A stretch of 53,436 nt of DNA from an uncultured Gammaproteobacteria bacterium (lineage in GTDB: Bacteria > Patescibacteriota > Patescibacteriia > Patescibacteriales > UBA12465). A program made the translations under genes and the position numbers. A model generated the notes under the pieces. It had not been told where the DNA came from and made no database searches. It was given only the letters and a program-made list of their open reading frames with translations. Below are positions 23,911-46,269 of this stretch, piece by piece. Position 1 is the first letter of the stretch, and the number at the start of each line of letters is the position of its first letter. The stretch is from assembly GCA_964616855.1 (NCBI GenBank), contig CAZTUJ010000005.1:1-53436 (forward strand), in the 5' to 3' direction.

Positions 23911-24000
23911 GGCGTTTTCAAGTTTACGTCTTTATGTTATAATAGGCTTAACTGCTTAGCGTTTAAATTATATCATGCTTTGCGGTTCAATTAAAATAAA

Positions 24001-26676
24001 ATGCGTCGCAGATTTTTTTCTTTTTTATTATTTCTCGCGCTTATCAGCGCCGGTCTTAGCCTGGCTAATTTTGCTTTTGCCCAGAACATTGATGTGGGAA
24101 TAAACGAGATTAGCGACACTATTGCTTTAAGTGCTACTGACCCCCGCGTTATCATCGCCAGAATAATTAACATCACTTTACTCTTTTTGGGAGTAATAGC
24201 TGTTGGCTTAATAGTATATGCTGGTTTTCTTTGGATGACCAGCGGTGGCAGTGAAGACAAGATTGATGATGCCAAGAAGATTTTAAGGAATGCCATTATT
24301 GGACTAGCTATTATTTTATCTTCTTGGGGGATTGCCTCTTTTATCCTTAGTCGTCTGATGCAAGCAACTGGTGTGGGTGGTATTTTTGGTGGAGATGAAA
24401 ATAATTCTGCTCTGGTTGGTACCGGTGCTATTGGTGCCTGTACGGTGGAGAGAGTGTACCCGGAGAACGGTCAAAGTGCGGTTGCTCGTAACACCTCTAT
24501 CATTGTTTCTTTTAAAGAGCCTTTAAATTTAGAGAGCGTTTGTCAAAATGAAGCCGGTGATACTTGTTCCTGTAACCAAGATACCTGTCGTTTAATCAAT
24601 CCAGAGAATATTCGTATTTTCCGACAGGATTTGGGCGACAACTGCGGCGCTAATAGCTGTCCAGATGATAATACTAACGTTAGCCGCGCCTATGTGCACG
24701 CCTCCAGTGATCGTTTGACTTTTATTATTACGCCTTTAGATTTCTTAGGTAATCCTGATGGCAATACTGACTATAGTGTTAAGCTAACGAGCGGTCTTAG
24801 GAAGGATGGCGGTGATTCTATTTTTAAAACTTGTCAGAGTGATTTCTTGCAGTGGGGCTTCGAAGTGAGCAACAATGTTGACTTAACCCCGCCCCAGGTG
24901 ATAAAGGGTGGAATTTTCCCTTTGCCTGATAATGAAGAAGATATTTTTGCCTCTACGCAGGCGGCGGTGGCCGCAGCCGCTTCTATTCAAGTCGAAACCT
25001 GCCCTAATATTTATCAGCCGGCGGTAGTTTTGGGGGTTACACCCACAGCCGGCAATCAAAACGGCAGCGCTACTATCGACTCTAATTATCATAGTCATTT
25101 TTCTTCACTTTCTGTAGTTACTACTGTTAATAATGCACAAGCGCAGCTTTTCGCAGGACAGTCTTTATTGGGAGTGGCTGATTGGTCAGGCAATCAGATA
25201 AATTTTCCTGGATTTTTTCAATTACAAGTTGATGGTCATGAAGCCGGTAATTCTTGGAACGTAGCCATTACTCCCGAGGTGCTAGCCGATAATTTAACGG
25301 TTAGCGGCGAGCTTTACACCTTTGCGGCAACGGGTAACGGTAATAATATTTTAGTTGCTCCCGGTAATTGCGATGTGAACGCGGTGGCCACTTCTATCTA
25401 TGCTAAGTTAAGCGGCCATCCTGACGTGAATGTTGACAAGAATGCTGCTCATATTACTTTAACGGCCAAAGTGGCTGGCTCCGCTGGTAATAATCTTCGC
25501 CTTGCCACCAATAATGTTACCGCCTTATCCTTACAGCCTTTTAGCGGCGGCCAAGATCGAACCTCTTCAAGCGAGGTTAAAGATAAGCATGACCGGCCGA
25601 TGAATTCGGTTATTCAATTGAATTTTAACGAAGCCGTTAATCCTTTACTGGTATCGGGATTGGCGAGCGATGTTAGTTCCTATATTAGAATTATTAATGC
25701 TGAGGCGGCTGCTCCCGCTGGAGGGGTGTGCACTCAAAATAGTGACTGCGTTTCTTATAAGTGTGAAAACAATGTTTGCGTTGGCGATTATTTGGCTGGC
25801 AAATTCATGATTGCTAATGCTTATAAAACCGTAGAATTTATTTCTGATGTTGAATGTGGCCAGAACGGCTGCGGCGAAAAGATTTATTGTTTGCCCGCCA
25901 ACAGTCATTTGGCGGTAGAATTAGTCTCCGCTAATTTAAAGACCTGCGCTTCTGATAATGACTGCGCTAATTTCCAGCCTTTTTCCCATTGTGCCCCCTT
26001 TGCTAATTATCAGACCTGTCAGGACGGGAATGGTAAGAACTATCCGGTTTCCAACATTGAGCAATTAGATGGTGTCGTTGATGCTTCTCTTAATTCTTTG
26101 GATGGTAATCGGGATATTTTTGCTGATGGCCCCTTGGCTTTTTATAACGAAAACGATTCTAACAATTTAACTTTAAAGGATAAGTATAAATGGTCTTTCT
26201 ATATCAATGATCAGATTATGTCTGAGCCGCCCCAGATATCTTTTATTCAGCCAGATAATAATAGCTTAGGAGTTGATACTAAAGAGGCGGTAAAGATTAA
26301 CTTTAATACCTTGATGATGAATAGCAGTTTGCGCACTGGTAGCGTGATTGTTAATAATGGTCAGGAAGATATTGAACATCATTTGCTTAATATTTTTAGC
26401 TCCTCCCCCTCTCCCTTAGGTTATTGGGTGACAGCTGATAATCGTGACGTTTCTCCTTTAGATGGTGAACCTGACCTTACTTTTGCCTCTTTAAACCACA
26501 CCGAATTAGCTGCCTCCGTTAGCTATAAGACTCAAGTTGGTTCCGGTGTTAAAGACATCTATCAAAATTGTTATAAGCCTAGCGCTGGCCCTAATTGTGC
26601 CGCTGATATTTCTAATCCTTCCTGTTGCTACGGCACGGCCACTAATTTACTGGGCTTAGATGGTAATTGTCAATAA
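24001..26676 (+). CDS. VirB2/TrbC-like pilin fused to Ig-like and Cys-rich extracellular domains
   Basis: Signal peptide, pilin hairpin (IVYAGFLWMTSGG.EDKI..AKK.L.NAIIGLAII), Big_5-like repeats (VYPENG...RNTSIIVSFKEP; IKINF-type segments) and many Cys. Confidence 0.85.
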   Translation: MRRRFFSFLLFLALISAGLSLANFAFAQNIDVGINEISDTIALSATDPRVIIARIINITLLFLGVIAVGLIVYAGFLWMTSGGSEDKIDDAKKILRNAIIGLAIILSSWGIASFILSRLMQATGVGGIFGGDENNSALVGTGAIGACTVERVYPENGQSAVARNTSIIVSFKEPLNLESVCQNEAGDTCSCNQDTCRLINPENIRIFRQDLGDNCGANSCPDDNTNVSRAYVHASSDRLTFIITPLDFLGNPDGNTDYSVKLTSGLRKDGGDSIFKTCQSDFLQWGFEVSNNVDLTPPQVIKGGIFPLPDNEEDIFASTQAAVAAAASIQVETCPNIYQPAVVLGVTPTAGNQNGSATIDSNYHSHFSSLSVVTTVNNAQAQLFAGQSLLGVADWSGNQINFPGFFQLQVDGHEAGNSWNVAITPEVLADNLTVSGELYTFAATGNGNNILVAPGNCDVNAVATSIYAKLSGHPDVNVDKNAAHITLTAKVAGSAGNNLRLATNNVTALSLQPFSGGQDRTSSSEVKDKHDRPMNSVIQLNFNEAVNPLLVSGLASDVSSYIRIINAEAAAPAGGVCTQNSDCVSYKCENNVCVGDYLAGKFMIANAYKTVEFISDVECGQNGCGEKIYCLPANSHLAVELVSANLKTCASDNDCANFQPFSHCAPFANYQTCQDGNGKNYPVSNIEQLDGVVDASLNSLDGNRDIFADGPLAFYNENDSNNLTLKDKYKWSFYINDQIMSEPPQISFIQPDNNSLGVDTKEAVKINFNTLMMNSSLRTGSVIVNNGQEDIEHHLLNIFSSSPSPLGYWVTADNRDVSPLDGEPDLTFASLNHTELAASVSYKTQVGSGVKDIYQNCYKPSAGPNCAADISNPSCCYGTATNLLGLDGNCQ

Positions 26677-26769
26677 AAATCTTAAGTCATCAAGTTATTT
26701 AGCGATAAGGTTTAGGGTAATTAATATTTTTATCCTTTAATAGCTTTACGCTTAATAATTATTTCCTTT

Positions 26770-29700
26770 GTGTTTAAAAATAAAAAAGCCATTATTCGTT
26801 TATTTGCGCTTTTCTTCTTGATTGGTGCTAGTCTTGCGTTTGCGCAGTTGGCAGGCGCTCAAATTGACGTCGGGACTAACGAAATCAGCAATGATATTGT
26901 TTTAAGCGCGAATGATCCCCGGACAATAGCGGCCCGCATCATTAATGTGGTGATGTTGATTTTGGGTGTATTAGCGGTTGGCTTGGTTGTTTATGCGGGT
27001 TTTCTCTGGATGACTTCCAACGGCGAGGAAGATAAGATTGATCAGGCTAAAAAAATCATGCGCAATGGTGTTATTGGTTTAGCGATTGTTCTATCAGCTT
27101 GGGGCATCGCTTCTTTTGTTTTAAGTCGTTTAATGGGGGCTACTAATGGTAACGGCTCCGGAAATTATTGTGTTAACGGTTCATCTAGTGCTTGTGGTTG
27201 TGGTGGTTCCATGATTTGTACCGATAATTCTTGGGGAAGCTGTATCGGTAGTGATTGTAGTAATGGTGGCGGACCCACTAGTTGCGACAGCGATCCTTTA
27301 CCCGGTTGTCAGGCCGTTGATCAGATTTGTGCCAGCGATAGTTACTGTGATAGCAGCACTTGTGCCTGTTTACCAAAAGGGGAATTGGGTGACTCCTGCG
27401 ATGCCGATGCTGTGAGTCCTACTTGTGAAGCGGACAACAATCTTTGCGCGGAATATTTAAGTTGCGATACGACTTCTTGTACTTGTTATGGACCGCCCGT
27501 AATTACGGAAATTAGTCCGGTAGGAGGTTTTTGCCAAGAGGATAGCAATAGAAGCTGTGACAGTGATGATGATTGTTCCATTGCTTGCGATTTAGCCACT
27601 CCTAATGGAGCTGTTGATAATATTATTACAATTTCAGGAAGTAATTTTGGAGCCTATGATCCTACTAATAGTAGAGTAATTTTTGGTGGTGATTTAGCGG
27701 GCGTAGAGCCCTCAGTATTAAATCCAGACTGTATTAATTCTTGGTCCAATAATCAAATCATTATTGCCGTCCCTTCTGGTGTTCTCACCGGTTCTGTCAG
27801 AGTGATTACGTCTGACAATCAAGCCGATACCACTAATGATGAAAATGGTCCGGTTTTACCTGATTTTGTTGCTAATAATATTGTTAGACCCGGCCTTTGT
27901 CTTCTCACCCCTGACGCTGGTTTATTAAGTGAGCAGGTAAATTATCGGGGGATTAATCTTTATTCGGGTGATGCTTATTTTGGTAATTATAGTAAGAACG
28001 TTCGAGGCTTAGACTCGGTTTTCGTTAATCCCGCCGGTTTAGCCGGTACTAGCACTATTCCGAATTTGAATCGCGGTAAAATGAGTAGTTTTGTTGTCGC
28101 CAGTGTGGCCGGTAACCAAGAAAAGAGTAACTATGTCAGTTTCGTTAAAGAAGAAGAGCCTGATGCCGGTCCCTTTATTAGTTATTTTGAGCCCGCTACT
28201 GGCCGCGCCGGTCAATATGTCACTATTCACGGCGGTGGTTTTGGTGGTGCCAGAGGCTCTTCTCAAGTGTATTTTGGCGATGTCGAGGCTGACTATGCCT
28301 TCCCTGAGGTTTGTGCAAATTCTGTTTGGCGGGATAAACAAATTATTGTAAAAGTGCCAGCCAATCTCAGCGACGGTAACTATGAAATTTCTGTTAAATT
28401 AGGAGAGACAGAAATTGATTCTCAGAATGCCAATCCTAACACTTTTGCTGCTAATGCTGCTATTTCTTTAAAGACTAGTATTTGTCGAGTTTCTCCGCAG
28501 CGGGGACAGATTGGTACCCCGGTTAGTATCTGGGGCGAATATTTTGGCGATAATGGTGGCGATGCTTTGTCAGTCTTCACCTATAATCGTTCCGTAAGCG
28601 GTGTTATTGCCCTTGATCAAGGGGCTCAGCGCTTAGACCCGCTGGTTCCAGAAAATGCCGTGACCGGCCCCTTGAAAGTTTTAAAAAATAATGAATGGGG
28701 CAACGATGTTAATTTTGAAATTGGTGCCTGTACCGCCAACAGTGATTGCGGTGGGGAAGTTTGTTGTCCGGCTAGTACTTATAAGCAGGGTCGCTGCGTT
28801 AATGCTTTAGCTGATTGTTACCTTGATATTCCTAATTCTGTTTTTGAGTGGGGATTTTCTACTGGTTTTGGTGGCGTCGCTACTACGACCACTTATGATA
28901 GTTGTCAGGGGATGGCTCAAACTTTGGGTGCTTGCCAAGTGGGAGCCTTTTGTCCTAATTCTCCTGGCCTTTGCTCTCCTTTTGGGGGAGGCACTCAGAT
29001 TTTAGGCTCTTGTGACTCTACTTGTGCCAGCAATCCGGCTTGCGCTTCTCAAGCAGCAGGTGCTTGTAGTTATGATTCTGAACTCGATGCCTGTGTGGCT
29101 AATAATGTTAATTGTTCGCTCTCTTCAACTCTTATTTATAATTTAAATGGCACGGAATTTAGTGCCATCCAGTCGTGCAAAGTTTTCCCTCAGTTTGGCA
29201 GTCAGACTCACTGGGAAATAAATACCGCCGCCTCTTGTCCTAACGGTTGGACAAGATTAGACGGCGGCCGTTGTGTGGATAGCGTTAGTAATACCACCTC
29301 AAGCTGTTCTTTATGCGCCTCCGGGTTTGATTGCGCTAGCATTAATAATACCGGTCGCTGCGTAACCGCAGAGTTATGCGGGGGTGAGGCTGACTGTAAT
29401 GGCAGTTCTTGTGTCGCTTCTGATTCCGCTCGTTGTGATTGTTGCTGTGAAATTGGTCAAGATGCTCGTGATTGTTGTGCTCCTTTAAGTTGTACCGGCA
29501 CCTGTGGCAGCGACTTATCTGATGATAACTCCGGCTTAGGTCAATGTTCAGGCTGCGCCATTGATAGCGATAATAATGGTTCCTTTTCTGTTGATGAACA
29601 GCTTTTGTCTGATCAAGCTTGTAATTGTAGCAGTCATTCTGGAAAATATTGTGATGTTTCTCAACCGACGGGAGCTTGTGTCGATTGCAGCCGTTTGACC

Positions 29701-32634
29701 ACTAAAGATTCTTGCATGGCTCATAGCCAGTTCTGTTGCTTTGATTCTCGTGGTACCGCCAGTGAGCATGATGATGTCTGTACTGGGGGTAGCGGCCAAG
29801 CAGTGAGTAGTGATCCGGCGAGTCCCGATTTCGGCTATTGTGCCTATTTTGATTGTGAAAGTGCCTCTTCTTTACCGCCAGGAGATCCCAGTAAGTGTGC
29901 CTCTTCGACGCCTAAAGTTTTTGGTTTATTTAAAACTGTCGAAAGCTGCGTTGATAATTGTGCCGCTAATCCCGGTGTAGATTTCTGCAGCCAATTTGAC
30001 GGTGATCAGTTGGCGTGTGCCGCTGGTGCCGGCTGTTGTTTCAACTTTAGTGACCAACAATGTAATTCTGGTACGCAGATGGCCGGTGGTTATTGCGCTT
30101 ACTATAATTGCCAAGCCACCCCCAATAATGATCAATGTGATCCCAATCCGATTGCTACCGGAACTTACCAAAGTTTAAGCACTTGTGCTACTGGCTGTGC
30201 CCAGCCGGTTCTCGGTGGACTTGGTAAAGATTGTCGGAATTTAACAACTACTTCTACCACGGAATGTAATCAATCTTTCTGCTCCTCTCCTTTTGCCTGT
30301 TTAAATAGTACGGGCTCGGTTGGCCTACCAGGCGATTGCGGTACCTGTTGTTGTCAGGTGAGCAATCCGGCTTCCTGTGCAGGAATTGGCAATGGCAATT
30401 TGGTCTGTCAGCCGAATCAAGCTCCTTGCTCCGGCAATGACCGTGGTTTATGTTGCGGCTGTAGCCAAGATTCTGACTGCGGCAATGTTGAGACTTTAGG
30501 TTGCGATGCCGGTACTTGTTGTCGCGCTCGCCCAGAAGTGATTGTGGATTCTGTCCAGCCACCTTCTAGTGCTAATAACGTCTGTCGTAATGCTAGCATC
30601 AGGGTGCCTTTTGATCAGGATATGGATATTAGCAGTTTGTCTAACGGTTTAATTTTATTAGAAGAACATGATTATGGTAACGGCTCTTGTCCAGCCGGTA
30701 CATTTTTAGCTGCGGCCGATGGCTTTAAACCTTTACACCAGAATTTTTTTGTCCGCGTTTATCAAAAATTTACTCGTTCTGTGCGTAGTCTTGCCCGTCA
30801 TTTAGGTTTAAGTTCTGAAACCGCCCTCGCTTTATCTCCTCCTAGCCCTTCGAAGCTGTATTGTGCCGTGCCAGGAATGGTGGTACTTACTCAAGAAGGT
30901 AATGGCAGCGTTGCTGAATTCCGTCCCAAGAAATTATTAGCGCCCGCCACTTCTTACTATTTAATCGTGAAAGGTGATGGCGCTCTAGATAGTAATGAGG
31001 GTGTTTTAAGTCAGTGGCAATTGGGGATGAACGGCGCTGGCTATTTAAATCCCGCTACCAATAATTATATTGAAGGAGCTACTCTGACTTTTAATAATTT
31101 AATATTTACTAATTCTTACATTACTAGCTTCAGTACTCTGCCTCAACAGGGAGCTAACGCTGGTATTTGTGCGGTTGATTATGTTGTGACTGCTCCCGCT
31201 TCTTATCTATTCAAAAATACGGAAAATGATCTCAACGAAGATGACACCAATCCCCAGAGCAATAGTTTTGATACTAAGGCTGACCGGGATAAATTATTCA
31301 GCGCTAGTGCTTATAGCGCTGATGGCCAGAAACTCCATCCTAGCTCTGGTTACTATTGGGATTGGAATTGGGAGGTTGTTAAGCCTAGCGTCGCCACCCT
31401 CGCCTCTGTCAGCGGCTTAAGTTCGGACCAAGCTTTCGTGGTGGCGGCCGGTGGAGTTTCCGATGACTCTACGATTTTAAGAGCCGAATTAAACATGGAT
31501 CGTTTTTCCGCTCCGGCCTGTAACGCCTCTTCTGCTTGTGTTTGTGCTGAACCAGAATGTTTTAATAATTGTTGTAATGCTTATCAAGATGGTGATGGTT
31601 TGCGCACGGAGACGCCTTTGTTTATTTTCTTATGTAGTAATCCTTGGCCGGCCATTGATCCGGCGACTCAGAACTGGTCCCCTTGGTATGATACTTGCGA
31701 TGGGGCTATTGGTAATTGCTCTAATTATAATTATAAGTTTTATTACTGCCGCGATGCTGGTGGCGATAGCCTGGCGGATGATTTACCCGCAATGATTAAC
31801 CCGGCTGTTATCAGAGGCTCGGGTAATGCTTTGGCCTGTAGTGAGGGCCAAGCCCCTTGCTCTAATCTGGGTTCAACTTGCGGTCCTGATAATAATTTTG
31901 ATGGCGTTGGTGATGGCTTCTGTATCTGGAATGTCTTAAAAGAATCTTACTTCTTTAAGGAAGCAACTCCGCAGGTCGGTGCGATTACGGCTGCCGTTGA
32001 CGAAGAGGACGGTGAAACGGTACGTTTGGAGTGGTATGGCGATTCTAGTTTGATTTATGATGCCAACCCAAATAAGATGGGTAAATATCGAATTTACTAT
32101 GCGCCGGTTAATGCGGGTAATATGTCTTTTGTTGATACTAAGCCGACCGATGATTATTTAGAGGGTTTTTCTACCCCCGTTTGTTCACCCTTAGTTCCTA
32201 GCGCTGGTGAAAATTATTCTTGCCACTTCTTGTTGTCTGGTTTACAGACTGACGTTTCTTATCGCTTTAAAGTTTCCGCTATTTCGATTGCTCAAGTAGA
32301 AAGTCCCTTGTCAGATGAAAAGACCGTGCTGGTAAGCGACAAAATTGCGCCACCCGCACCCCAGGGTTTAAGTGCGCAAATTATTAATGCCCAGCGAGTG
32401 CGCTTTACTTGGCACGCTAATGATAGTGACACCTCTTTTAATCGCCTTTATCACGGCATTGCTAGTGGCCAGTATGGAGAATCTTTTGATTCCGAGGAAG
32501 GCGTGACCGCCTTAGAGCTGGATTTACTTCAGTTTAGTCCGGGTACTCATTATTTTGCTTTGTCAGCCTTAGATGAGTCTAATAATGAAAGCGGCAAATC
32601 CGCACCGATTTCTCTAGTGATCAGTGCGCAGTAA
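26770..32634 (+). CDS. 1954-aa VirB2/TrbC-like pilin fusion with IPT/TIG, Cys-rich, Ig-like and FN3-like domains
   Basis: Pilin N-terminus paralogous to the upstream gene. IPT repeats (GQYVTIHGGGFG, W.DKQIIVKVP), dense Cys clusters (CDCCC, CGTCCC) and C-terminal FN3-like segments. GTG start. Confidence 0.85.
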   Translation: MFKNKKAIIRLFALFFLIGASLAFAQLAGAQIDVGTNEISNDIVLSANDPRTIAARIINVVMLILGVLAVGLVVYAGFLWMTSNGEEDKIDQAKKIMRNGVIGLAIVLSAWGIASFVLSRLMGATNGNGSGNYCVNGSSSACGCGGSMICTDNSWGSCIGSDCSNGGGPTSCDSDPLPGCQAVDQICASDSYCDSSTCACLPKGELGDSCDADAVSPTCEADNNLCAEYLSCDTTSCTCYGPPVITEISPVGGFCQEDSNRSCDSDDDCSIACDLATPNGAVDNIITISGSNFGAYDPTNSRVIFGGDLAGVEPSVLNPDCINSWSNNQIIIAVPSGVLTGSVRVITSDNQADTTNDENGPVLPDFVANNIVRPGLCLLTPDAGLLSEQVNYRGINLYSGDAYFGNYSKNVRGLDSVFVNPAGLAGTSTIPNLNRGKMSSFVVASVAGNQEKSNYVSFVKEEEPDAGPFISYFEPATGRAGQYVTIHGGGFGGARGSSQVYFGDVEADYAFPEVCANSVWRDKQIIVKVPANLSDGNYEISVKLGETEIDSQNANPNTFAANAAISLKTSICRVSPQRGQIGTPVSIWGEYFGDNGGDALSVFTYNRSVSGVIALDQGAQRLDPLVPENAVTGPLKVLKNNEWGNDVNFEIGACTANSDCGGEVCCPASTYKQGRCVNALADCYLDIPNSVFEWGFSTGFGGVATTTTYDSCQGMAQTLGACQVGAFCPNSPGLCSPFGGGTQILGSCDSTCASNPACASQAAGACSYDSELDACVANNVNCSLSSTLIYNLNGTEFSAIQSCKVFPQFGSQTHWEINTAASCPNGWTRLDGGRCVDSVSNTTSSCSLCASGFDCASINNTGRCVTAELCGGEADCNGSSCVASDSARCDCCCEIGQDARDCCAPLSCTGTCGSDLSDDNSGLGQCSGCAIDSDNNGSFSVDEQLLSDQACNCSSHSGKYCDVSQPTGACVDCSRLTTKDSCMAHSQFCCFDSRGTASEHDDVCTGGSGQAVSSDPASPDFGYCAYFDCESASSLPPGDPSKCASSTPKVFGLFKTVESCVDNCAANPGVDFCSQFDGDQLACAAGAGCCFNFSDQQCNSGTQMAGGYCAYYNCQATPNNDQCDPNPIATGTYQSLSTCATGCAQPVLGGLGKDCRNLTTTSTTECNQSFCSSPFACLNSTGSVGLPGDCGTCCCQVSNPASCAGIGNGNLVCQPNQAPCSGNDRGLCCGCSQDSDCGNVETLGCDAGTCCRARPEVIVDSVQPPSSANNVCRNASIRVPFDQDMDISSLSNGLILLEEHDYGNGSCPAGTFLAAADGFKPLHQNFFVRVYQKFTRSVRSLARHLGLSSETALALSPPSPSKLYCAVPGMVVLTQEGNGSVAEFRPKKLLAPATSYYLIVKGDGALDSNEGVLSQWQLGMNGAGYLNPATNNYIEGATLTFNNLIFTNSYITSFSTLPQQGANAGICAVDYVVTAPASYLFKNTENDLNEDDTNPQSNSFDTKADRDKLFSASAYSADGQKLHPSSGYYWDWNWEVVKPSVATLASVSGLSSDQAFVVAAGGVSDDSTILRAELNMDRFSAPACNASSACVCAEPECFNNCCNAYQDGDGLRTETPLFIFLCSNPWPAIDPATQNWSPWYDTCDGAIGNCSNYNYKFYYCRDAGGDSLADDLPAMINPAVIRGSGNALACSEGQAPCSNLGSTCGPDNNFDGVGDGFCIWNVLKESYFFKEATPQVGAITAAVDEEDGETVRLEWYGDSSLIYDANPNKMGKYRIYYAPVNAGNMSFVDTKPTDDYLEGFSTPVCSPLVPSAGENYSCHFLLSGLQTDVSYRFKVSAISIAQVESPLSDEKTVLVSDKIAPPAPQGLSAQIINAQRVRFTWHANDSDTSFNRLYHGIASGQYGESFDSEEGVTALELDLLQFSPGTHYFALSALDESNNESGKSAPISLVISAQ

Positions 32635-32652
32635 TTTTGTTAATATTTTTAT

Positions 32653-35600
32653 ATGATTAATAAGCGTCTTTTTTATCCATTGCTAATCGGCTTGCTTCTT
32701 TTAGCTTTCTTGCCTCTTGCGGGCAGGGCGGCCGAAGGGAATAATAACGTTAATGTTATTGGTGATCCTGGCTCGGCGGCCGCGGAAGCTAGCAATAGTA
32801 GTGATGCGATTGCTGTTCGAATTTTGCCGAACCCAAATCACTATAGCGCGGCTCGTTGGTATAAAAGCCAGAAGTTTTCTGGTTCCCCGCAGGCCTTGAT
32901 GGTTGATGGCTATGACGCCGTCCGTGACGGACGCACAGTTTATGTTAACGCTGCTAATGTTAATCTGGCAACTAAGCAAATTTATACCAACATCTATTTA
33001 ATTTCGTATAACCAGGACCCTGATTTTAAGACAGTGGATGTTTTGGGACAGATAGTAGATCATTGGCGCTTTAATAGCAATTTGAATGAGTCGGGTAATT
33101 GCTATATTTCCACCATGCCTTGCGAGAGCGATTCCGATTGTACTGAAGGCTATACTTGTTTTGGTAAGAGTAATGCCCCGGGGCGCTGCCGTTTAGCCGA
33201 AAATGATGTCTGTTATACTGATGCTGATTGTGGCAAGAATTTATATTGCAATAGCTTGCGCGCCCAGGTTGCCCGTGATGTCCGCCGTTTAGGCATGTTG
33301 GGTGATTTGCGTGAATCCTTAGCGGCTTTTAATAATAAGAATGATCGTTATCCAATTTTGGGTGCCGGTACTTATTTACCCCTAAACAGCTTATCTGTTT
33401 GGCCAAGTTGGCAATCTTTGTTCTTACCTCAAATTGGGGCAGGTAGCTCTTTAGTCGATCCTATTAATACCCTTGGCCCTTGTGCCGATCACGATGTAGA
33501 TACTTGTTGGAATAAAGACACTAATTCTTTTGCTGATCCAGAACCAGATAACAACTCTTTAGAATTACCGGCGGGGAGCTATGTTTTTACCTACTCTAGT
33601 GACCAAAATGGCTCCAATTACAGTTTATGCGCGGCCATGGAAACCAAGAGTCTCGGTTATAATACAACCGAAGGACAGTTGGCTGATTCCGGTTGCGTTG
33701 CTAGCGGTGCCGGTTATGTCGGCTCTAGCGATAATCTTGAGCCGATTTTGATTGCCACTAATTTACAAGGTGAACAGAATCAAGAATTTAATGGTTTTAT
33801 TAAAGTGATTGATCCTGAGGGCAATCCTTTAGATTGGTCAATTAATACTAGTGCTAGTACTTGGACTAATTGGCGTAATAATAATCAAAACAATGTTGCT
33901 CCTATCTTGCAAGACAGCTCTAATCCTAACCAAAAGAGAATTTATGCTCAAGCCGCCGGTAATGCCGGCAACTACAATTTACCACTAACGGTTAGTGATG
34001 GTCAGGGCGGGACCTTGTCGACGGTGACAGTTTTAAAAATTACTAACAGTGCCCCGTTAATACAGTCGGATGACCTTGTTTATTATCCAAATGAACCTAT
34101 CCCTTTGATTGTTCGCTTCAGCGTTACGGATAAACATCATCCTCTTTCCTATACTTTTACTAAAGCAACTTGGAGCTCAGGTCCTTATGATATTCTTTCT
34201 CCGCCCCATTCCACTCTTGGCCCTGTGGCGGCAGAAAGAGTAGGGGATACCGTCTATTACGCTCGCAAATACGATATTCACACGACCAATAAGTTTAGTA
34301 AGGACACCACCTTCGTTTATGTCGTTACTGCCAAAGATCAGTATAATGTTAGTTCCACTCGGCAGATAAATATTACTTTTAAGGCTGACCCGCCCGCTTT
34401 GGACTTAAATTGTTCAAAATCAGTTCGTGTCGGTTCTTATTATTACTGTGGCTTGGGCTGGCAGAAGCAGGGGGATCATACCATTAGTTATAGTGCCTCC
34501 CTTCCTTTGCCTGCGGGCTTAGCGATTTTGGAAACAACTACGGGCGTGCCCGAGTTAGGCGATGATACTAATATCTCTAAATCTTCGGGTGGAGTTTGGG
34601 GCCGTTTGCTTACTTGGTTCAAGTCTTCATTAAATCCCGCGGCTGAAGCCGCTGTTACAATGAGCCATTATTATGCTTTGTACGGCACTCCGACGGTGGC
34701 CTCCTCTTCTTTCTTAATTAAGATTAAGGCAGAAAATGAATTTGGTGCTTTTACCGAAAGAGAATTCCGTTTAGGAGTTAATAATTACTGCGGCGATCAC
34801 TCTTTACAGAGACCGAATTTCGAAGGGCGTGGCGGCTTCTATAATGACGGCCACGAAGATTGTGATGGTAATACCGGAATTGTAGTCAATCGCAACAATA
34901 TCCCTGCTAGTTCTCCCAGCTTGCAATACGGTTGCACTACTAAAATCACAGACACTGTTCCTTTCCCCATCATGAATAATCAGTATTTTTGCACCTTCCT
35001 TGCTCCCGACGATGAAGAGGGCGGCGGTTATTGTGGCGATGGTATTTGTCAGGCAAAAGTAAGACGCAATGGTCAATTAGTTCCCTGGGAGATAGGCGGT
35101 CTTTGTCCTGAAGATTGTACTTGTGCCGGCCAGAATCAAGTTAATAATAATGGAGAGTGTGCTTGTGTGAGTGGTTGGTATGATTGTGACGGCCAAGATG
35201 GTTGTGAAAGCAGTACTGATTGTAACCAAGACGGCGGTTGTCTGGCTAGTCAATATTTATGCGCCGGTGAATGTCACCCGCGGGATATTAATCATAGTAC
35301 TGATTGCGGAGAAAACACTGATAAATGTTGTACCGGCGGGCCAGATTGTGCCGCCCAAGGCTGTCCGAACGGATTTTACAATTGTGATGGATTCTACGAT
35401 TGTGAAGCAACAAGTTGTTTGTGCCCAGCGGGTCACATTTGGAATGATGACGCCTGGCCTAACGGCGGCTGTGTTTTAGATCCTCAGGTCCCTTGTCCAG
35501 GGCAACAGCCTTGCGGCAATCACTGTTACAATCCCACCACTCAGCAATGTTGTGGCGGTCAAGTAGTTTGTGGAAATAACCAATATTGCTGTAATCCTTC

Positions 35601-35691
35601 TGCCAATTCATTTGTTTGTGTTTCTAGTTACACTTATTGTTATATAGATTCAGAGGGCGGTAATGGCAATGGCAATGGTAATGCTAATTAA
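32653..35691 (+). CDS. secreted Cys-rich multidomain protein with an internal type IV pilin/GspG-like segment and Ig/cadherin-like repeats
   Basis: Signal peptide; RDVRRLGMLGDL...YP...DP; DPEGNPL and LTVSDGQGG repeats; CGD...EDCD repeats; GN-repeat C-terminus. Confidence 0.8.
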   Translation: MINKRLFYPLLIGLLLLAFLPLAGRAAEGNNNVNVIGDPGSAAAEASNSSDAIAVRILPNPNHYSAARWYKSQKFSGSPQALMVDGYDAVRDGRTVYVNAANVNLATKQIYTNIYLISYNQDPDFKTVDVLGQIVDHWRFNSNLNESGNCYISTMPCESDSDCTEGYTCFGKSNAPGRCRLAENDVCYTDADCGKNLYCNSLRAQVARDVRRLGMLGDLRESLAAFNNKNDRYPILGAGTYLPLNSLSVWPSWQSLFLPQIGAGSSLVDPINTLGPCADHDVDTCWNKDTNSFADPEPDNNSLELPAGSYVFTYSSDQNGSNYSLCAAMETKSLGYNTTEGQLADSGCVASGAGYVGSSDNLEPILIATNLQGEQNQEFNGFIKVIDPEGNPLDWSINTSASTWTNWRNNNQNNVAPILQDSSNPNQKRIYAQAAGNAGNYNLPLTVSDGQGGTLSTVTVLKITNSAPLIQSDDLVYYPNEPIPLIVRFSVTDKHHPLSYTFTKATWSSGPYDILSPPHSTLGPVAAERVGDTVYYARKYDIHTTNKFSKDTTFVYVVTAKDQYNVSSTRQINITFKADPPALDLNCSKSVRVGSYYYCGLGWQKQGDHTISYSASLPLPAGLAILETTTGVPELGDDTNISKSSGGVWGRLLTWFKSSLNPAAEAAVTMSHYYALYGTPTVASSSFLIKIKAENEFGAFTEREFRLGVNNYCGDHSLQRPNFEGRGGFYNDGHEDCDGNTGIVVNRNNIPASSPSLQYGCTTKITDTVPFPIMNNQYFCTFLAPDDEEGGGYCGDGICQAKVRRNGQLVPWEIGGLCPEDCTCAGQNQVNNNGECACVSGWYDCDGQDGCESSTDCNQDGGCLASQYLCAGECHPRDINHSTDCGENTDKCCTGGPDCAAQGCPNGFYNCDGFYDCEATSCLCPAGHIWNDDAWPNGGCVLDPQVPCPGQQPCGNHCYNPTTQQCCGGQVVCGNNQYCCNPSANSFVCVSSYTYCYIDSEGGNGNGNGNAN

Positions 35692-35715
35692 AATTTTTTA
35701 GTAACATCAATAATT

Positions 35716-36030
35716 ATGAAGATTAATAAAAAAGTTTTATTACTGGCCGTTGGATTATTGGTTTTAGCCGCTTTAGCCTGGTGGCTTTACACTCAGCGCT
35801 CTAACCCAGAGAAGAATGGAACTAATGTTTCTGAAAACCAAGCAGCCTCTTTAAACCCGGTTTTTATGAGTACGGAAGAAAAGGCTAGCCTTTATATTCC
35901 AGAGGAAACTAAAGTCCAGGTTTTAAATAGAGATGAAAAAGGTGAGCCCATAACTTATAAAATCATTAATAATGATGCTGAAGTTGTTACCGAGGATAAA
36001 ATGGCGCCAATTAGGCCAGAAAATCAGTAA
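35716..36030 (+). CDS. small membrane-anchored hypothetical protein
   Basis: N-terminal TM, 104 aa, within the operon. Confidence 0.75.
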   Translation: MKINKKVLLLAVGLLVLAALAWWLYTQRSNPEKNGTNVSENQAASLNPVFMSTEEKASLYIPEETKVQVLNRDEKGEPITYKIINNDAEVVTEDKMAPIRPENQ

Positions 36031-36101
36031 AGATGCATTTTTTGAAAAAATCGTTTATAATAATAAAGAAATTAGTTTTCTTAAAATAAATTTTGAAATT
36101 T

Positions 36102-36785
36102 ATGTTTAACAATCTTGGCAATCAGCCTGCGGGCGCTGCCGGTGATAATTCTGTAGATGATATTTTTGCAGAAACTGATGCTTCGGTTGCCCATCCGGTT
36201 AGCGGTGCCAGTATTCAAACTCAGGCGGCCGGCCTTTCTGCCCCCCGCGCCTTAGTTGAAGGCGAGGATGCTCACGCTGGACGTTCAGGAATAAAAATAA
36301 AGTTTGTTCTCATTATTGTTTTAGTGGCTTTAATTTTGGGAGCAGCCGCTTATTTGGCTTATTCAAAATTTATGCGCTCAGCGGCGGAAAGTGATTTACT
36401 GCCTAGCGCCACCACTACCGCTGATAAGCCTTCAAATGAAGTCGTGGTAACTCCTCCCGTCAATAATGTTGTTGTTCCTGAGCCGGAACCCATTGTTCCT
36501 AACCCGGAGCCAGTAGTTAATACAAATGTTGCTACCAGCGCTAGTGGTACTACCGTAGTAACGGCACCGGTTGATTCCGATGGTGATAGTTTAACGGATT
36601 TAGAAGAAAAGGCGCTTAATACTAATATTAACTTGATTGATTCTGATTTTGACGGTTTATCCGATTACGAAGAGGTTAAAATTTATCTGACTAATCCTAT
36701 TAACCCTGATACCGATGCTGACGGTTTTAACGATGGTGATGAAGTTAAGAGCGGTTATAATCCCAAGGGTAGTGGTAAGCTCTAA
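36102..36785 (+). CDS. single-pass membrane protein with a Pro/Val stalk and thrombospondin type 3-like Ca-binding repeats
   Basis: DSDGDSLTD, DSDFDGLSD and DTDADGFND repeats; ATG at 36102. Confidence 0.85.
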   Translation: MFNNLGNQPAGAAGDNSVDDIFAETDASVAHPVSGASIQTQAAGLSAPRALVEGEDAHAGRSGIKIKFVLIIVLVALILGAAAYLAYSKFMRSAAESDLLPSATTTADKPSNEVVVTPPVNNVVVPEPEPIVPNPEPVVNTNVATSASGTTVVTAPVDSDGDSLTDLEEKALNTNINLIDSDFDGLSDYEEVKIYLTNPINPDTDADGFNDGDEVKSGYNPKGSGKL

Positions 36786-36809
36786 ATTACGCCGTCTCTA
36801 TTTGTTGCT

Positions 36810-36995
36810 ATGAATATGAACCAAAAAAGTAATCAGAAGAATTTATCCGGCATCGCGGGGGTGAGTTTGTATTTGCGTGTGCACGTGATGCCCAAATTAA
36901 ATATGCCTTTGCGCGGTCGCGCTTGGCAATGGATTAGCCCTTTTGCGGCCGCAGCCGTTTTGATTGTCGCTATTTTTTATTTTTTATCTGATTAA
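36810..36995 (+). CDS. putative small membrane protein
   Basis: 61-aa ORF that fills the gap, has a C-terminal TM and stops 2 nt before the next ATG. Confidence 0.5.
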   Translation: MNMNQKSNQKNLSGIAGVSLYLRVHVMPKLNMPLRGRAWQWISPFAAAAVLIVAIFYFLSD

Positions 36996-36997
36996 TT

Positions 36998-37999
36998 ATG
37001 GAGAAGCACGGCATCAAAGGTGATAAAAAAATTACGGATGATTTACAGCAAAAGCTGCAGAAGGATTTTATTGTTCGCAATATGCCTGCTTTTGCCAGTT
37101 TGAGTGGGGCGAGCTATGAGGGCCCTGATGGCAAAACCCATCATTCTTCAAAAAAGACAGTAAAAATTGGAGGGAAGTCCCTAGAATCACATAAATCTAC
37201 CGGCCTTATTATTATTGGCGCCGGTTTTTTGGTGGTGGCAATTTTATTTTATTTAGCCTATCGTTTTTTAATTTTGCCAGCAATGAATCCGGTTGCTCAG
37301 GAGCTTGTTGAAAATCCAGTTAAGTCTCAGGATGTGGCAACCAAAACAGACGAGGTGGTGCCGGAACCGGAAGTGGCTGTCACTCCTGCCCCAGTTGTAG
37401 TCGCGCCGGTGGTAGAGACGCCAGTAGCAGTCGTTGCCCCTAGTTTGCCGACCGTCGCTGATGCTGATAATGATGGCTTGAGTGATGTCGCCGAAGTTTT
37501 CATTGGCTCTAATGCTCAATTAGCTGACACTGATAATGATTCTTATAATGATAAACAGGAAATTTTGAGTGGCTATAATCCTCTTGGCGGTGGCAAGCTT
37601 AGTGAAAATAATAATTTGGGTCTTTACCGTGATGCCAGCGGTAGCTTTGCCGTTATCTATCCTCAAGCTTGGGAGGTAAAATCGGCTAGTGCTAACTCTA
37701 CTCTTTTTTCCGCCCCTGATCAGTCTTTTATCCAAATATCTTATGAAGCTAGCGATCAGGAATATGCCGATATTTTATCTTGGTACCAGGGTCAATTTTC
37801 TGATGCTGATGCTTTAAGCCCCGATCGTTTTATTGAGAGTAGCTTTGGGCCGGGAATTATTAGCGCCGACCAGCAAATAATTTATTTTTTAGACTCTGAC
37901 CGTCGTCATACTTTTGTTATTTCTTATATCAAATCAGGCGACGCCGCTCCTTACGCCGATATTTTTAAGATGATGGCGCTTACTTTAATGAAGCTTTAA
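36998..37999 (+). CDS. single-pass membrane protein with TSP3-like repeats and a C-terminal PsbP/Mog1-like domain
   Basis: TM helix, Pro/Val/Ala stalk, DADNDGLSD and DTDNDSYND repeats, then FAVIYPQAW. Confidence 0.8.
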   Translation: MEKHGIKGDKKITDDLQQKLQKDFIVRNMPAFASLSGASYEGPDGKTHHSSKKTVKIGGKSLESHKSTGLIIIGAGFLVVAILFYLAYRFLILPAMNPVAQELVENPVKSQDVATKTDEVVPEPEVAVTPAPVVVAPVVETPVAVVAPSLPTVADADNDGLSDVAEVFIGSNAQLADTDNDSYNDKQEILSGYNPLGGGKLSENNNLGLYRDASGSFAVIYPQAWEVKSASANSTLFSAPDQSFIQISYEASDQEYADILSWYQGQFSDADALSPDRFIESSFGPGIISADQQIIYFLDSDRRHTFVISYIKSGDAAPYADIFKMMALTLMKL

Positions 38000-38014: not shown

Positions 38015-38048
38015 AAAAACCCCGCCGGTTTGCTGTGGCGGGGTTTTT
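38015..38048. terminator. bidirectional terminator between the surface-protein cluster and clpP
   Basis: A5-CCCCGCC...GGCGGGG-T5. Confidence 0.85.
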
Positions 38049-41732: not shown

Positions 41733-44051
41733 ATGTTTCGTCTTGACTGGCAAAAAATTATCACCTTACTTTTACGCTGTGCCTATTATTTAGCTTTAGC
41801 CGCCTTGCCCTTGGGTATGTCTTTTTTATTTCCCACCTTTAGTCCTTTTAATTTAGTAAAAGCGGTCTGGCTCCATATTTTAGGGGCTAGTATTTTTATA
41901 TTATTAATTTTACAAACACGTGCTCGTTGGCGGCAAGTCCCTCTTTCTTTTTTGCCTGTTAATTTCTGGTCATCCTTATTGCCAGTTTGGATCTTTTTTG
42001 GAGTTTGGGCCGTTCTTTCTTATTGGTCAGCCTCGCCCCTTCAGTCTTGGTTTGGTTCTTATGAGCGTCAGTTCGGTCTTAGTGCTTACTTTTGGTTAGC
42101 CCTGTGGCATAGCTTCGTTGTTTATTATAGCTCTGGGGCAGGGGAAGCGAAGGCTATCTCTCGGCCTGAATCCTGGTTAAAAATAGTGCGTCTGAGTGCT
42201 TTGACAGCGGCTATTGTTGGCGCCCTAGTTGGCCTTTATGCTGGTTTGCAGTTTTGTGGCTATGATTTTGCTGTCTGGCAGGAGCCGCAATTATACGCTC
42301 GCGCTATTTCCACTTTTGGTCAGCCTAATTTACTCGCCTCTTTTTTGCTTTTATCCTTACCCTTAACTGTTTATTATTTTTCTTTACAAAAGCGCTTTTT
42401 GACTCGTTTCTTCGCAATCGTTTTATTCGGTTTTCAGTTTCTAGGTCTAGTTGTTAGCGGTTCTAGGGCGGCATGGTTAGCCTTCGCTTTAACGATGGCG
42501 TTGCTGATTTTAGTTTTAGCTTGGCGCCGCTGGCGTTTTTGGTCTTTAACTTTAGTTTTGCCGCTGCCAATTATTATTTTAATGAGTTTTTCGGTTCTAA
42601 TGCCAGGGCGAGTGCAGGCTTTTTTAAATTTTAATGGGGGCAGTTTAGCTGTTCGGAAGCAGTTCTATGAAGTAGCTTTACCAGTGATTAAAGAACGGCC
42701 TTGGCTGGGAATTGGTTTAGAAAACGGTGGAGAAGCTATCATCCCTTATTACCAGCAAGATTGGGGAGTTTTTTCTAATATTAATAGCTATACGGATAAA
42801 GTACACAATAGTTTCTTAGATACTATTATCCAGACTGGTATTATTGGTTTTATTTTTTGGGCAGGACTCTATCTTTTCTGGGCTTGGCAATGTTGGCGCT
42901 TATGGCAACATCCAGCGAGTAGAAATTTTGCTCTGGCCGCCGCGGCCGCCATGTTTGCTTATAGTTTCTCTTTGTTATTTAGTATTTCTGATTTAACCGG
43001 GGTTTTTTATTTCTGGTTTTTAGCCGCTTTAGTGGTGGCGGGCAATCTCAGTTTAGCCTCGGGCGAAAAAAAATCTTTTTTTCAATGGTTAAGGCATTTC
43101 TTGTTTAAACTTGGAGGCAGAAATTCTCGTTTACAGACTTTAGGTGCTAGCCTGCTAGGAGTAATTATTATTAGTGGCTCGCTCTGGCAGATTTATTTTA
43201 GTTTTAGTTCTTTGTTGGCTGATTACTACTTTTTACAGCTTTATAGCAGTTTGTCTAGCCGTGAATATTTTACCATCGATGCTCTGTATTCTTACACCGA
43301 AAAAAATGCTTTAAATCCGATTAATCGCATTTATTACCAACGAGTTTTTAGTACTTATGCCTGGTTTAATTTTCAAAATTTACCTGATAAGGCTAGTCAA
43401 TATATTTTAAGAGAGCGGTTGGAGACAATCGTAAAAATATTTCCAACAGATACTTATGAAAATCTAGCGGTATCTTCGCGCTTACGCTGTTTTTTGCAAA
43501 CAGATAAGGTTGTTTTTAAAGATTTTAAAAAATTAATTAATTCTAGTCCCGTGCGGCCATCAGGTTATCGCGATCAGGCTTATTGCCTCCAGCTTTCAGG
43601 AGAGAATGAAGAGGCAATCGCCACTTACCAGCAAGCACTCTCTTTGTTGCCAGATAGAAGCGATCCCCGTTTTAATCCTGTTCATCTGTCTTATTTACAT
43701 TTTTATGCTTATCAGTTAGAAAAGGACAGTGCTTATTTGTATGAAAAGACGGGAGACCTTGAAAAAGCCTTGTTATCTTATCGTCAAGCCTACTCTGATT
43801 ATCCCGAAGATGTTGTTATTTTGGATAATATTTCTAAAGTTTATCAGCAGCTTCAGGACTATCCTTCCGCGCTAGCCGTTTTAGAGCATGCTTATGTTCG
43901 TCAGCCTCTCCAAGCCTATTGGCCCTTAGCTTTAGCGCAGTTATATCAAGAGTTGGGTAAGGAAGAGGTTTCAGCTTTTTATTATCAAGCCGCTAATGCT
44001 TTGCAGGCGGAAGCTGAAATAGTGCCAGAAAATTCTCAATTTTACCGTTAA
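41733..44051 (+). CDS. O-antigen ligase-like (Wzy_C) membrane protein with C-terminal TPR repeats
   Basis: STFGQPNLLA, SGSRAAW, RPWLGIG and KVHNSFLD motifs; TPR-like helices after about aa 600. Confidence 0.88.
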   Translation: MFRLDWQKIITLLLRCAYYLALAALPLGMSFLFPTFSPFNLVKAVWLHILGASIFILLILQTRARWRQVPLSFLPVNFWSSLLPVWIFFGVWAVLSYWSASPLQSWFGSYERQFGLSAYFWLALWHSFVVYYSSGAGEAKAISRPESWLKIVRLSALTAAIVGALVGLYAGLQFCGYDFAVWQEPQLYARAISTFGQPNLLASFLLLSLPLTVYYFSLQKRFLTRFFAIVLFGFQFLGLVVSGSRAAWLAFALTMALLILVLAWRRWRFWSLTLVLPLPIIILMSFSVLMPGRVQAFLNFNGGSLAVRKQFYEVALPVIKERPWLGIGLENGGEAIIPYYQQDWGVFSNINSYTDKVHNSFLDTIIQTGIIGFIFWAGLYLFWAWQCWRLWQHPASRNFALAAAAAMFAYSFSLLFSISDLTGVFYFWFLAALVVAGNLSLASGEKKSFFQWLRHFLFKLGGRNSRLQTLGASLLGVIIISGSLWQIYFSFSSLLADYYFLQLYSSLSSREYFTIDALYSYTEKNALNPINRIYYQRVFSTYAWFNFQNLPDKASQYILRERLETIVKIFPTDTYENLAVSSRLRCFLQTDKVVFKDFKKLINSSPVRPSGYRDQAYCLQLSGENEEAIATYQQALSLLPDRSDPRFNPVHLSYLHFYAYQLEKDSAYLYEKTGDLEKALLSYRQAYSDYPEDVVILDNISKVYQQLQDYPSALAVLEHAYVRQPLQAYWPLALAQLYQELGKEEVSAFYYQAANALQAEAEIVPENSQFYR

Positions 44052-44055
44052 ATTT

Positions 44056-44859
44056 ATGCTTTTATTTTCTCTAATTATTTTTTTTCTCGGCTTGGCTTTG
44101 GGCAGTTTTGCTAATTGTTTAATTTGGCGTTTATATCGTCAAGAAAAACTGAGCGGACGCTCGCACTGTCCTCGTTGCCAACATCAGTTAGCCTGGTATG
44201 AAAATATTCCTCTGTTAAGTTATGTGCGTTTGCGGGGCCATTGTCGTTATTGTCGTCAGACAATTGCCTGGCAGTATCCGGCGGTAGAGGCGGCGGTCGC
44301 AATTTTATTTACTTTTTTCTGGTTTAAACATTTAAATTTTAGTTGGCCTGGTCCCGAATCATTAGCTGTTATTTTAGGAGATTATAATTTCTGGCTACCT
44401 TTGCTACGGGATTTTCTAGCGGTCTGGGTTTTAACGGTTGTTTTCGTTTTCGATTTGCGCTTCTATTTAGTATCAACTTTGGTGGTTTTACCAGTTAGCG
44501 CGGCTTTTATTATTTTAAATTTGCTATTAGGAGCCTCTTGGCTGACTTTGCTAGGCACAATTTTGGCGGCAGTGATATTTTTTGGTCTGCAGTTTATTCT
44601 AACTCGGGGGCGTGGTCTGGGTGAAGGGGATATTTGGCTTGGTTTGATGTTGGGGGCCCTATTTCCGGATTGGAGTTTATTGATTTTAGCCATTTTGGTC
44701 TCTTATTTGATTGGTACAGCTGTAGGCTTAGCTCTAATTGCTGCTGGTCATAAGTCCTGGGGCTCAAAATTGCCCCTAGGAGTGTTTTTAGCGCTAGGAG
44801 CGATAATCGCCCTGGCTTGGGGTCCCAGCATTATTAGCTCCTATTGGCGCTGGTTCTAG
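44056..44859 (+). CDS. pilD: prepilin peptidase (A24)
   Basis: GSF..C...R, RSHCPRC, ENIPLLS, CRYC, first Asp in VFDL, G.GD and LPLGVFL. Confidence 0.93.
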   Translation: MLLFSLIIFFLGLALGSFANCLIWRLYRQEKLSGRSHCPRCQHQLAWYENIPLLSYVRLRGHCRYCRQTIAWQYPAVEAAVAILFTFFWFKHLNFSWPGPESLAVILGDYNFWLPLLRDFLAVWVLTVVFVFDLRFYLVSTLVVLPVSAAFIILNLLLGASWLTLLGTILAAVIFFGLQFILTRGRGLGEGDIWLGLMLGALFPDWSLLILAILVSYLIGTAVGLALIAAGHKSWGSKLPLGVFLALGAIIALAWGPSIISSYWRWF

Positions 44860-44959
44860 TTGTTAATATTTCAAAAATTTATTATAATGGAATAAGTATG
44901 GTCTAAAGCGTCGGAGAGCTGTTTTTTAAAAAAGCTCTTTCGGCTGTTTTCAATATTTT

Positions 44960-46216: not shown

Positions 46217-46269
46217 ACTAAATCAAGAGTAGCCGCTTTCTGTAAGTAGGCGGCGATTCGGCCAGAACT

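Follow-up and report, generated by a model that had tools for sequence, protein, structure and literature searches.

Arrays of small VirB2-like pilins belonging to a type IV secretion system (T4SS) have been described in Patescibacteria (accessible parts of PMC12102498, PMC10633639 and PMC12857230), and two of these sources, in the same parts, treat as open questions both how most Patescibacteria find and hold their hosts and what purpose the VirB2-like pilins serve (PMC12102498, PMC12857230). Here we describe a block of seven genes, named A to G, in a stretch of 53,436 nucleotides (hereafter the window; contig CAZTUJ010000005.1 of assembly GCA_964616855.1), which is contig C5 of a 952-kb genome. 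Like the array pilins, the products of genes A and B open with a signal peptide and a two-helix hairpin that is 53-60% identical to the first pilin of the array, and a VirB4-type ATPase is present in the genome. Unlike the array pilins, which are approximately 127-163 aa long, A and B carry cargo of 770 and 1830 aa behind a 78-aa pilin module and are encoded apart from the secretion genes; at 891 and 1954 aa they are not small stand-alone subunits. What appears to be new relative to the known small pilin arrays is gene C, which, as judged from comparative genomics and a structural model, is the far end of B, the gene having been cut inside a domain of the PsbP/Mog1 type.

Two further systems offer partial parallels. 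In PilB of Streptococcus sanguinis (PMC8179133, accessible part) a binding module is likewise grafted onto a pilin, and VWA and lectin modules recur; the carrier in our locus, however, is a VirB2-type hairpin and not a class III type IV pilin. The Pam and chaperone-usher pili (PMC13278184, accessible part), compared here by description, are similar in that one chain completes the next fold outside the cell, in disulfide stabilization and in host contact by bacteria of the Candidate Phyla Radiation. These pili, known chiefly from Saccharimonadia and Microgenomatia, rely on Ig folds, chaperones and subunits that are repeated, whereas our locus would have a single stalk-tip joint of the PsbP type. 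A cargo-bearing pilin is not mentioned in the accessible parts of PMC12102498, PMC10633639 and PMC12857230, and the B-C system is absent from these as well as from the accessible parts of 10.1101/335083, PMC8179133 and PMC13278184. A literature search, with subscription papers mostly outside its reach, returned no paper on pilin fusions or on the split domain, although the tables of PMC12102498, which was accessible in part, may list such proteins as pilins.

The domain divided between genes B and C

Profiles of the B half and of the C half of the domain were searched in the same 151 genomes of the class, where the 47 genomes with a match to the C half only were not scored. The C half was matched in 133 genomes and the B half in 87, of which 68 encode a fused form, 18 a split form and one lacks the C half. 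In the fused forms the B half always comes first, and the halves lie a median of 88 aa apart. All 20 fused loci examined among the 68 (picked for long contigs) are single open reading frames (ORFs) of 1947-4062 aa, in which the pilin hairpin is followed by TIG and, in most, Big_5 domains, then by both halves and the head of a type IV pilin, and as a rule by a tip. The split genomes examined comprise all 14 outside the order and one more; G076 and G111 are weaker split cases, with the genes on separate or cut contigs. Where the gene ends are available, split C genes begin with a new leader, and, over all loci, 11 split B proteins end three to four residues past the third and last strand of the half-domain. 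Since these proteins end right after the half-domain, the FN3-like tail of B is optional. In all three genomes examined from family f30 B is one strand shorter and the third strand is carried by C, so that two distinct breakpoints are known, and family f28 comprises one fused and two split genomes. By these comparisons of sequence, C is the detached far end of B. A gene tree computed without the columns of the split domain needs five state changes; five independent splits were not upheld as an explanation, as a single origin could not be rejected, and what backs more than one event is the pair of breakpoints together with the mixed family.

A profile of the fused domain matched 20 of 301 genomes of the phylum, 19 of them in the class, and 142 of 151 genomes of the order. 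Among the matches listed for the 151 order genomes there was no uninterrupted full-length fused match; G599, considered as a fused form within the order, was dismissed because of a stop between the halves. Throughout the order, full or partial A-like matches are found ahead of a B-like frame. In 40 loci from close genomes the genes repeatedly follow the sequence A-B-(C)-E-G, C lying elsewhere in several of them. The gene order is kept across the class, in agreement with the co-conservation expected for these genes in an earlier reading of the window made from its letters alone (hereafter the sequence-only reading). The C half is multiple, with two to five separate copies per genome, in at least 21 of the 151 genomes of the order, and the extra C copies often lie beside a small TSP3 membrane gene of their own. 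The sole out-of-class match among the 301 phylum genomes (L127, G239:C5) is a fused form on a 9.8-kb contig, which may reflect transfer or mis-binning. L129 (G083:C52) has two tandem fused B-C genes, and in L115 (G169:C4) B itself is in two pieces and two G-like genes are present.

The two halves have remained constrained after their separation. Of 54 columns conserved in at least 75% of the fused proteins, 45 are still conserved in the split halves, the split rows of this comparison being redundant and mostly from one order. Moreover, in all 4 pairs formed with close relatives, nonsynonymous divergence (dN) is lowest for each half among the four regions of its protein that were compared: dN is 0.013-0.116 for the B half vs. 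0.018-0.229 for the B body, and 0-0.096 for the C half vs. 0.043-0.372 for the C tip, in a comparison where synonymous divergence (dS) is mostly saturated.

The natural fused region of genome G052 (locus L089) was modelled (predicted local distance difference test score, pLDDT, 83; predicted template modelling score, pTM, 0.84), and the model was used for a fold search against 48,161 chains. Residues 10-187, which span both halves, match BT_1490 (Z 9.3, root-mean-square deviation (rmsd) 3.5, 126 residues aligned), as well as LpqN (8.5), Mog1 and PsbP, while residues 217-348 match type IV pilin heads (Z 3.5-5.8, the best with rmsd 3.0 over 87 aligned residues). The Z values are moderate, and the fold was assigned because nearly all top rows belong to the PsbP/Mog1-fold or type IV pilin groups. 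The predicted domain resembles the proteins of the PsbP/Mog1/DcrB fold (PsbP, Mog1, LpqN, BT_1490 and Apa) but differs from them in its low identity (9-14%), its position inside a giant protein, an added Cys pair, its division between two genes and its tolerance of inserts of several hundred residues. The Pfam PsbP model matched none of the 19 fused domains tested, and profiles of the pilin head, the fused domain and the hairpin gave nothing meaningful against the sequences of solved structures. When modelled alone, the C half is predicted confidently (pLDDT mostly 86-93); it matches only positions 44-129 of the complete domain found in G (94.4%). No further donor of the front strands turned up in this genome in searches with profiles A3 and A2. 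The ESM Atlas, which returned scores of at most 0.82 and unnamed clusters only, was not used, and neither was alignment A6, in which the last strand of the B pieces is misplaced; alignment A8 is free of those rows.

Gene content, pilin heads and the make-up of C

An ORF listing of the window contains all seven genes on the + strand (Table 1), at the coordinates given by the sequence-only reading, which bears out its claim of seven co-oriented genes. The gaps between them, from A to G, are 93, 18, 24, 62, 24 and 2 bp, and the block is flanked by a divergent relA-like gene on the A side and a convergent clpP gene on the G side. From gene spacing alone we infer a single transcript for A to G. Of the terminator said to close the operon, the hairpin with 13 pairs and a T tail is present and ranks among the region's two longest, but terminator-like sites are about as numerous there as expected by chance (22 vs. 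19.7 +/- 4.6), and the count of promoter-like sites is likewise near chance. One RNA run contained 0.11 of the words, its short contigs of low depth falling in A, C, E to F and the neighbouring genes, and is too sparse for conclusions on expression or co-transcription. Cysteine makes up 2.9% of A, 6.3% of B and 5.0% of C, and is absent from D to G.

Table 1. Coordinates of the genes, domains and signals of the A to G locus in the window
Feature	Position	Strand	Remarks
Promoter-like site, 10/12 with TG	23915-23943	+	between divergent relA-like gene and A; consensus match only
Gene A, 891 aa	24001-26676	+	signal peptide, VirB2-like pilin hairpin, Big_5 Ig-like domains, small Cys-rich inserts
Pilin module of A, residues 43-120	24127-24360	+	77% identity with the B module, 53% with the array's first small pilin
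Gene B, 1954 aa	26770-32634	+	signal peptide, pilin hairpin, TIG, Cys-rich repeats, Big_5, front half-domain, FN3-like tail; predicted stalk
Pilin module of B, residues 45-122	26902-27135	+	60% identity with the array's first small pilin
Front half of split PsbP/Mog1-type domain, B residues 1612-1740	31603-31989	+	two invariant Cys
FN3-like tail of B	32002-32619	+	under cut-off; optional
Gene C, 1012 aa	32653-35691	+	own signal peptide, no later membrane segment; predicted tip
Back half of split domain, C residues 45-148	32785-33096	+	best-conserved part of C
Type IV pilin head lacking the membrane helix, C residues 200-335	33250-33657	+	hhalign 93.9% to type IV pilins of the same genome
Cadherin-like Ig domain, C residues ~360-467	33730-34053	+	Z 9.6, rmsd 2.4, 92 aligned
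Variable Cys-rich tip of C	34150-35688	+	mean identity with relatives, per 50 residues, mostly 7-44%
Gene D, 104 aa	35716-36030	+	membrane segment at N-terminus
Gene E, 230 aa	36093-36785	+	N-terminal region, one membrane segment, linker, TSP3_bac repeats
Gene F, 61 aa	36810-36995	+	small membrane protein
Gene G, 333 aa	36998-37999	+	one membrane segment, TSP3-like repeats, complete PsbP-like domain
PsbP-like domain of G	37595-37996	+	complete; related to split domain
Terminator-like hairpin, 13 pairs and T tail	38015-38048	.	between G and convergent clpP

The N-termini of A and B consist of a leader, presumably cleaved, and two hydrophobic helices with a short charged loop, in line with the three hydrophobic segments in the first 120 aa of each protein. 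The proposal that both begin with a signal peptide and a VirB2-like pilin is supported by PF18895 matches of 35.5 bits in A and 43.8 bits in B (cut-off 26.6). Among the Ig, IPT and FN3 domains claimed for their cargo, Big_5 is above the cut-off in A and B and TIG in B, whereas fn3 in B falls short (17 vs. 25 bits). The genome's remaining pilin modules share 28-50% identity with the heads of A and B. In 7 out of 8 pairs the head evolves more slowly than the body, and the whole pilin, loop included, retains approximately 52% identity across the class. In 34 out of 34 genomes the A and B heads resemble each other more closely inside one genome (66% identity) than between genomes (51%), and their silent sites match more often than expected (46% vs. 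34%; 21 of 24 in G016); together, these two observations suggest occasional gene conversion between the heads. A recent conversion in the genome studied here was rejected, as 7 of 18 silent sites match vs. 6.3 expected. The relatives of A are 570-990 aa long and come first in the operon.

Gene C had been described as a 1012-aa secreted Cys-rich protein; its leader and cysteine content agree with this description, but it is not an independent protein. The split domain, the type IV pilin head of C and the PsbP-like domain of G all go beyond the sequence-only reading. The head of C matches the type IV pilins of the same genome from residue 36 on, i.e., beyond their membrane helix. No PF07963 match was found on the operon contig, and the head of C, which is internal and has no membrane segment, does not conform to a class III signal peptide; being internal and lacking the helix, it would probably not polymerize in the usual way. 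The fold search with a model of C residues 40-470 was dominated by the Ig domain and is silent on the other parts. Among 68 C-type proteins from all loci (one cut ORF left out), 67 have a hydrophobic leader, 67 have the pilin head and one has a later membrane-like segment. The cargo and tips of 19 relatives scanned contain VWA, LamG, PA14 and carbohydrate-binding modules, Lcl and MopE repeats, with two of the relatives remaining without a match; the VWA, LamG, PA14 and carbohydrate-binding domains fit a role of the tip in adhesion.

Downstream of C, gene D occupies the position taken by the small TSP3 membrane partner beside the extra C copies of relatives. Of the two TSP3 membrane proteins proposed earlier, E passes with the TSP3_bac family of putative calcium-binding repeats (PF18884; 38.7 bits) and G narrowly misses the cut-off (24.9 vs. 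25 bits). PsbP is matched in 13 of 26 members of the G family (best E-value 7.8e-5), and F has matches in the closest relatives only. The predicted cytoplasmic N-termini of E and G (36093-36300 and 36998-37200) contain short recurring motifs that may bind a cytoplasmic partner; these loose patterns, counted without a control, are matched by 55 out of 72 E-like proteins and by 41 out of 56 G-like ones.

Secretion genes and chromosomal setting

PF18895 is matched 13 times in the genome, by A and B, the six genes of an array, three more small pilins and two mid-sized fusions. A VirB4-type ATPase is present above the cut-off (PF19044, 99.3 bits), as anticipated for a genome with a T4SS; the two genes ahead of it are presumably PrgI and TrsD, to judge by resemblance. 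A VirB6-like gene (874 aa) matches weakly, under the cut-off, and PF02534 gives a match of 22.4 bits. The genome also encodes type IV pilins and two DsbA-like proteins. Thus, of the genes to be located elsewhere according to the sequence-only reading, VirB4 and DsbA were found, VirB6 remained below the cut-off and VKOR was not found. The VirB4-type gene lies on contig C1, the pilin array on C6 and the operon on C5. The earlier interpretation is supported in part: the VirB4-type ATPase, the pilin match and the conservation of gene order agree with it, and none of its refuting conditions that could be checked came true. Its display of adhesins on a pilus stays conjectural; the operon is not next to secretion genes in any locus examined, and no VKOR match was found.

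Of the 20 fused loci, 16 have ftsA downstream and 15 have hisS or lepB upstream. In the window, a prepilin peptidase gene, ftsA and ftsZ are located at 44056-47472, 6 kb downstream; in fused relatives ftsA-ftsZ follow close behind G on the same strand. Two Wzy_C (O-antigen-ligase-like) membrane proteins are encoded at 10712-11968 and 41733-44051 and could take part in protein glycosylation; the second has TPR repeats and a weak PglL match, and adjoins the prepilin peptidase gene. Elsewhere in the genome, two Cys-rich proteins of 454 and 321 aa (L013 and L011; G000:C1:67474-68838 and 69709-70674) have a PF18895 hairpin, internal in one of them, and have a DsbA-like gene in their vicinity at C1:72683. 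A second pairing of a membrane gene of TSP3-like type (227 aa) with a Cys-rich giant, here of 2750 aa with 106 Cys (L132, G000:C1:77647-92317), lies approximately 3 kb from the weak VirB6-like gene; neither the split-domain nor the pilin-head profile matches the giant. A tandem of three type IV major pilin genes (L130, G000:C1:144908-146369) shows 87-89% identity among its members. Relatives that bear a name include Candidatus Falkowbacteria, a group that we take to belong to class ABY1. Several contigs with the same gene order are labelled as uncultured Gammaproteobacteria and are probably mislabelled bins.

A candidate stalk and exchangeable tip, and the alternatives

We propose that B forms a pilin-rooted membrane stalk, with A as a shorter partner, and that C is an exchangeable, probably adhesive tip relatched to the stalk via the divided domain. 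A, B and C, in all of which hydrophobic leaders are seen, would be exported by Sec; the basic loop of the hairpin would stay inside and the cargo outside, where a DsbA-like enzyme would form the disulfides. The B half would supply the front strands and the C half the remainder of one predicted fold, the halves rejoining between two chains after the split, and we regard such a B-C latch through a completed PsbP/Mog1-type domain as highly probable. The split and the rejoining would leave C free for duplication, relocation and variation. The hairpin would pack with small VirB2-like pilins or with the secretion platform, making A and B modular minor pilins; the slow change of the hairpin, the first gene of the array as the nearest small pilin and the VirB4-type ATPase speak for this role, and we lean slightly towards an engagement of the hairpin with pilins or platform. 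In the weakest step of the scheme, the anchorless type IV pilin head would dock or stiffen the fibre, which D, E and G would position as membrane partners. Belief and doubt in the complete stalk-and-tip scheme are evenly balanced, a valuation that follows from the latch and the engagement taken together, all of them being our judgements. A bolder version seems to us decidedly unlikely: a dedicated contact fibre of modular conjugative-type pilins would be present throughout the class, one protein would bridge a T4SS pilus, through the VirB2-like hairpin, and a type IV pilus, through the docking head, and in several lineages the cut inside the PsbP-type domain would have created a natural plug and socket by which one stalk accepts a repertoire of tips that set host range.

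Several observations weigh against the stalk-and-tip scheme. The structural model is that of the single chain of a fused relative and not of two separate chains, the Foldseek E-values are 0.002 or worse, and the B half matches the domain of G with only 1% probability, though at the missing positions 14-26. In the approximately unbiased test the tree failed to reject a single origin for the split (p 0.076), and it is unrooted, so that fission rather than fusion can only be inferred. On the side of the pilin, the sequence profile of the hairpin matched no solved VirB2 pilin, a pilus of the patescibacterial T4SS is treated as a mere possibility in the accessible part of PMC12857230, A is missing from some loci (e.g., L118), no virB4-like or virB6-like gene occurs in loci L038-L129, the operon sits between lepB-hisS and ftsA-ftsZ, and no VKOR match was found in the genome.

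Some of these points suit other explanations. The latch may be real and the pilin hairpin merely a borrowed anchor, with A and B acting alone or as small oligomers unrelated to any secretion machine or pilus. Loci without virB4-like or virB6-like genes, the size of the cargo relative to its 78-aa module, heads whose likeness within genomes makes them partly interchangeable, and the two other genes of the genome that fuse the hairpin to unrelated domains would all be accommodated in this way; however, a mere anchor would presumably not need a pilin conserved class-wide, loop included, and evolving more slowly than the body, and we consider this explanation somewhat unlikely. Very improbable, in our view, is an operon that builds a structural component of the cell envelope, linked to growth or division, instead of a host-binding organ: the tips are fast-varying and multi-copy, with VWA, lectin and carbohydrate-binding domains, and conserved neighbours need not share a function under vertical inheritance, even though the fixed chromosomal spot near ftsA and hisS or lepB, the presence of the C half in most genomes of the class and the title of the fold match LpqN (cell envelope biogenesis) point in that direction. 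Both halves have kept the conserved residues of the fused form and the lowest dN, at both breakpoints either B or C retains the third strand, and no other front-strand donor was found in this genome by the A3 and A2 profiles. It is accordingly hardly credible that the halves no longer meet, C being released and each half folding alone or with a partner such as G, despite the confident model of the C half alone, the C genes located away from B in several genomes and the related complete domain of G.

If the stalk-and-tip scheme is correct, an operon that is near-universal in one class and rare outside it would provide concrete candidates for host contact, in the form of a stalk that stays constant and a tip that varies and has domains which, being separately expressible, could serve as probes for hosts. 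Fragments of approximately 130 and 100 residues from B and C should then bind each other, and the divided domain would represent a natural two-part protein coupling that has arisen at two different breakpoints.

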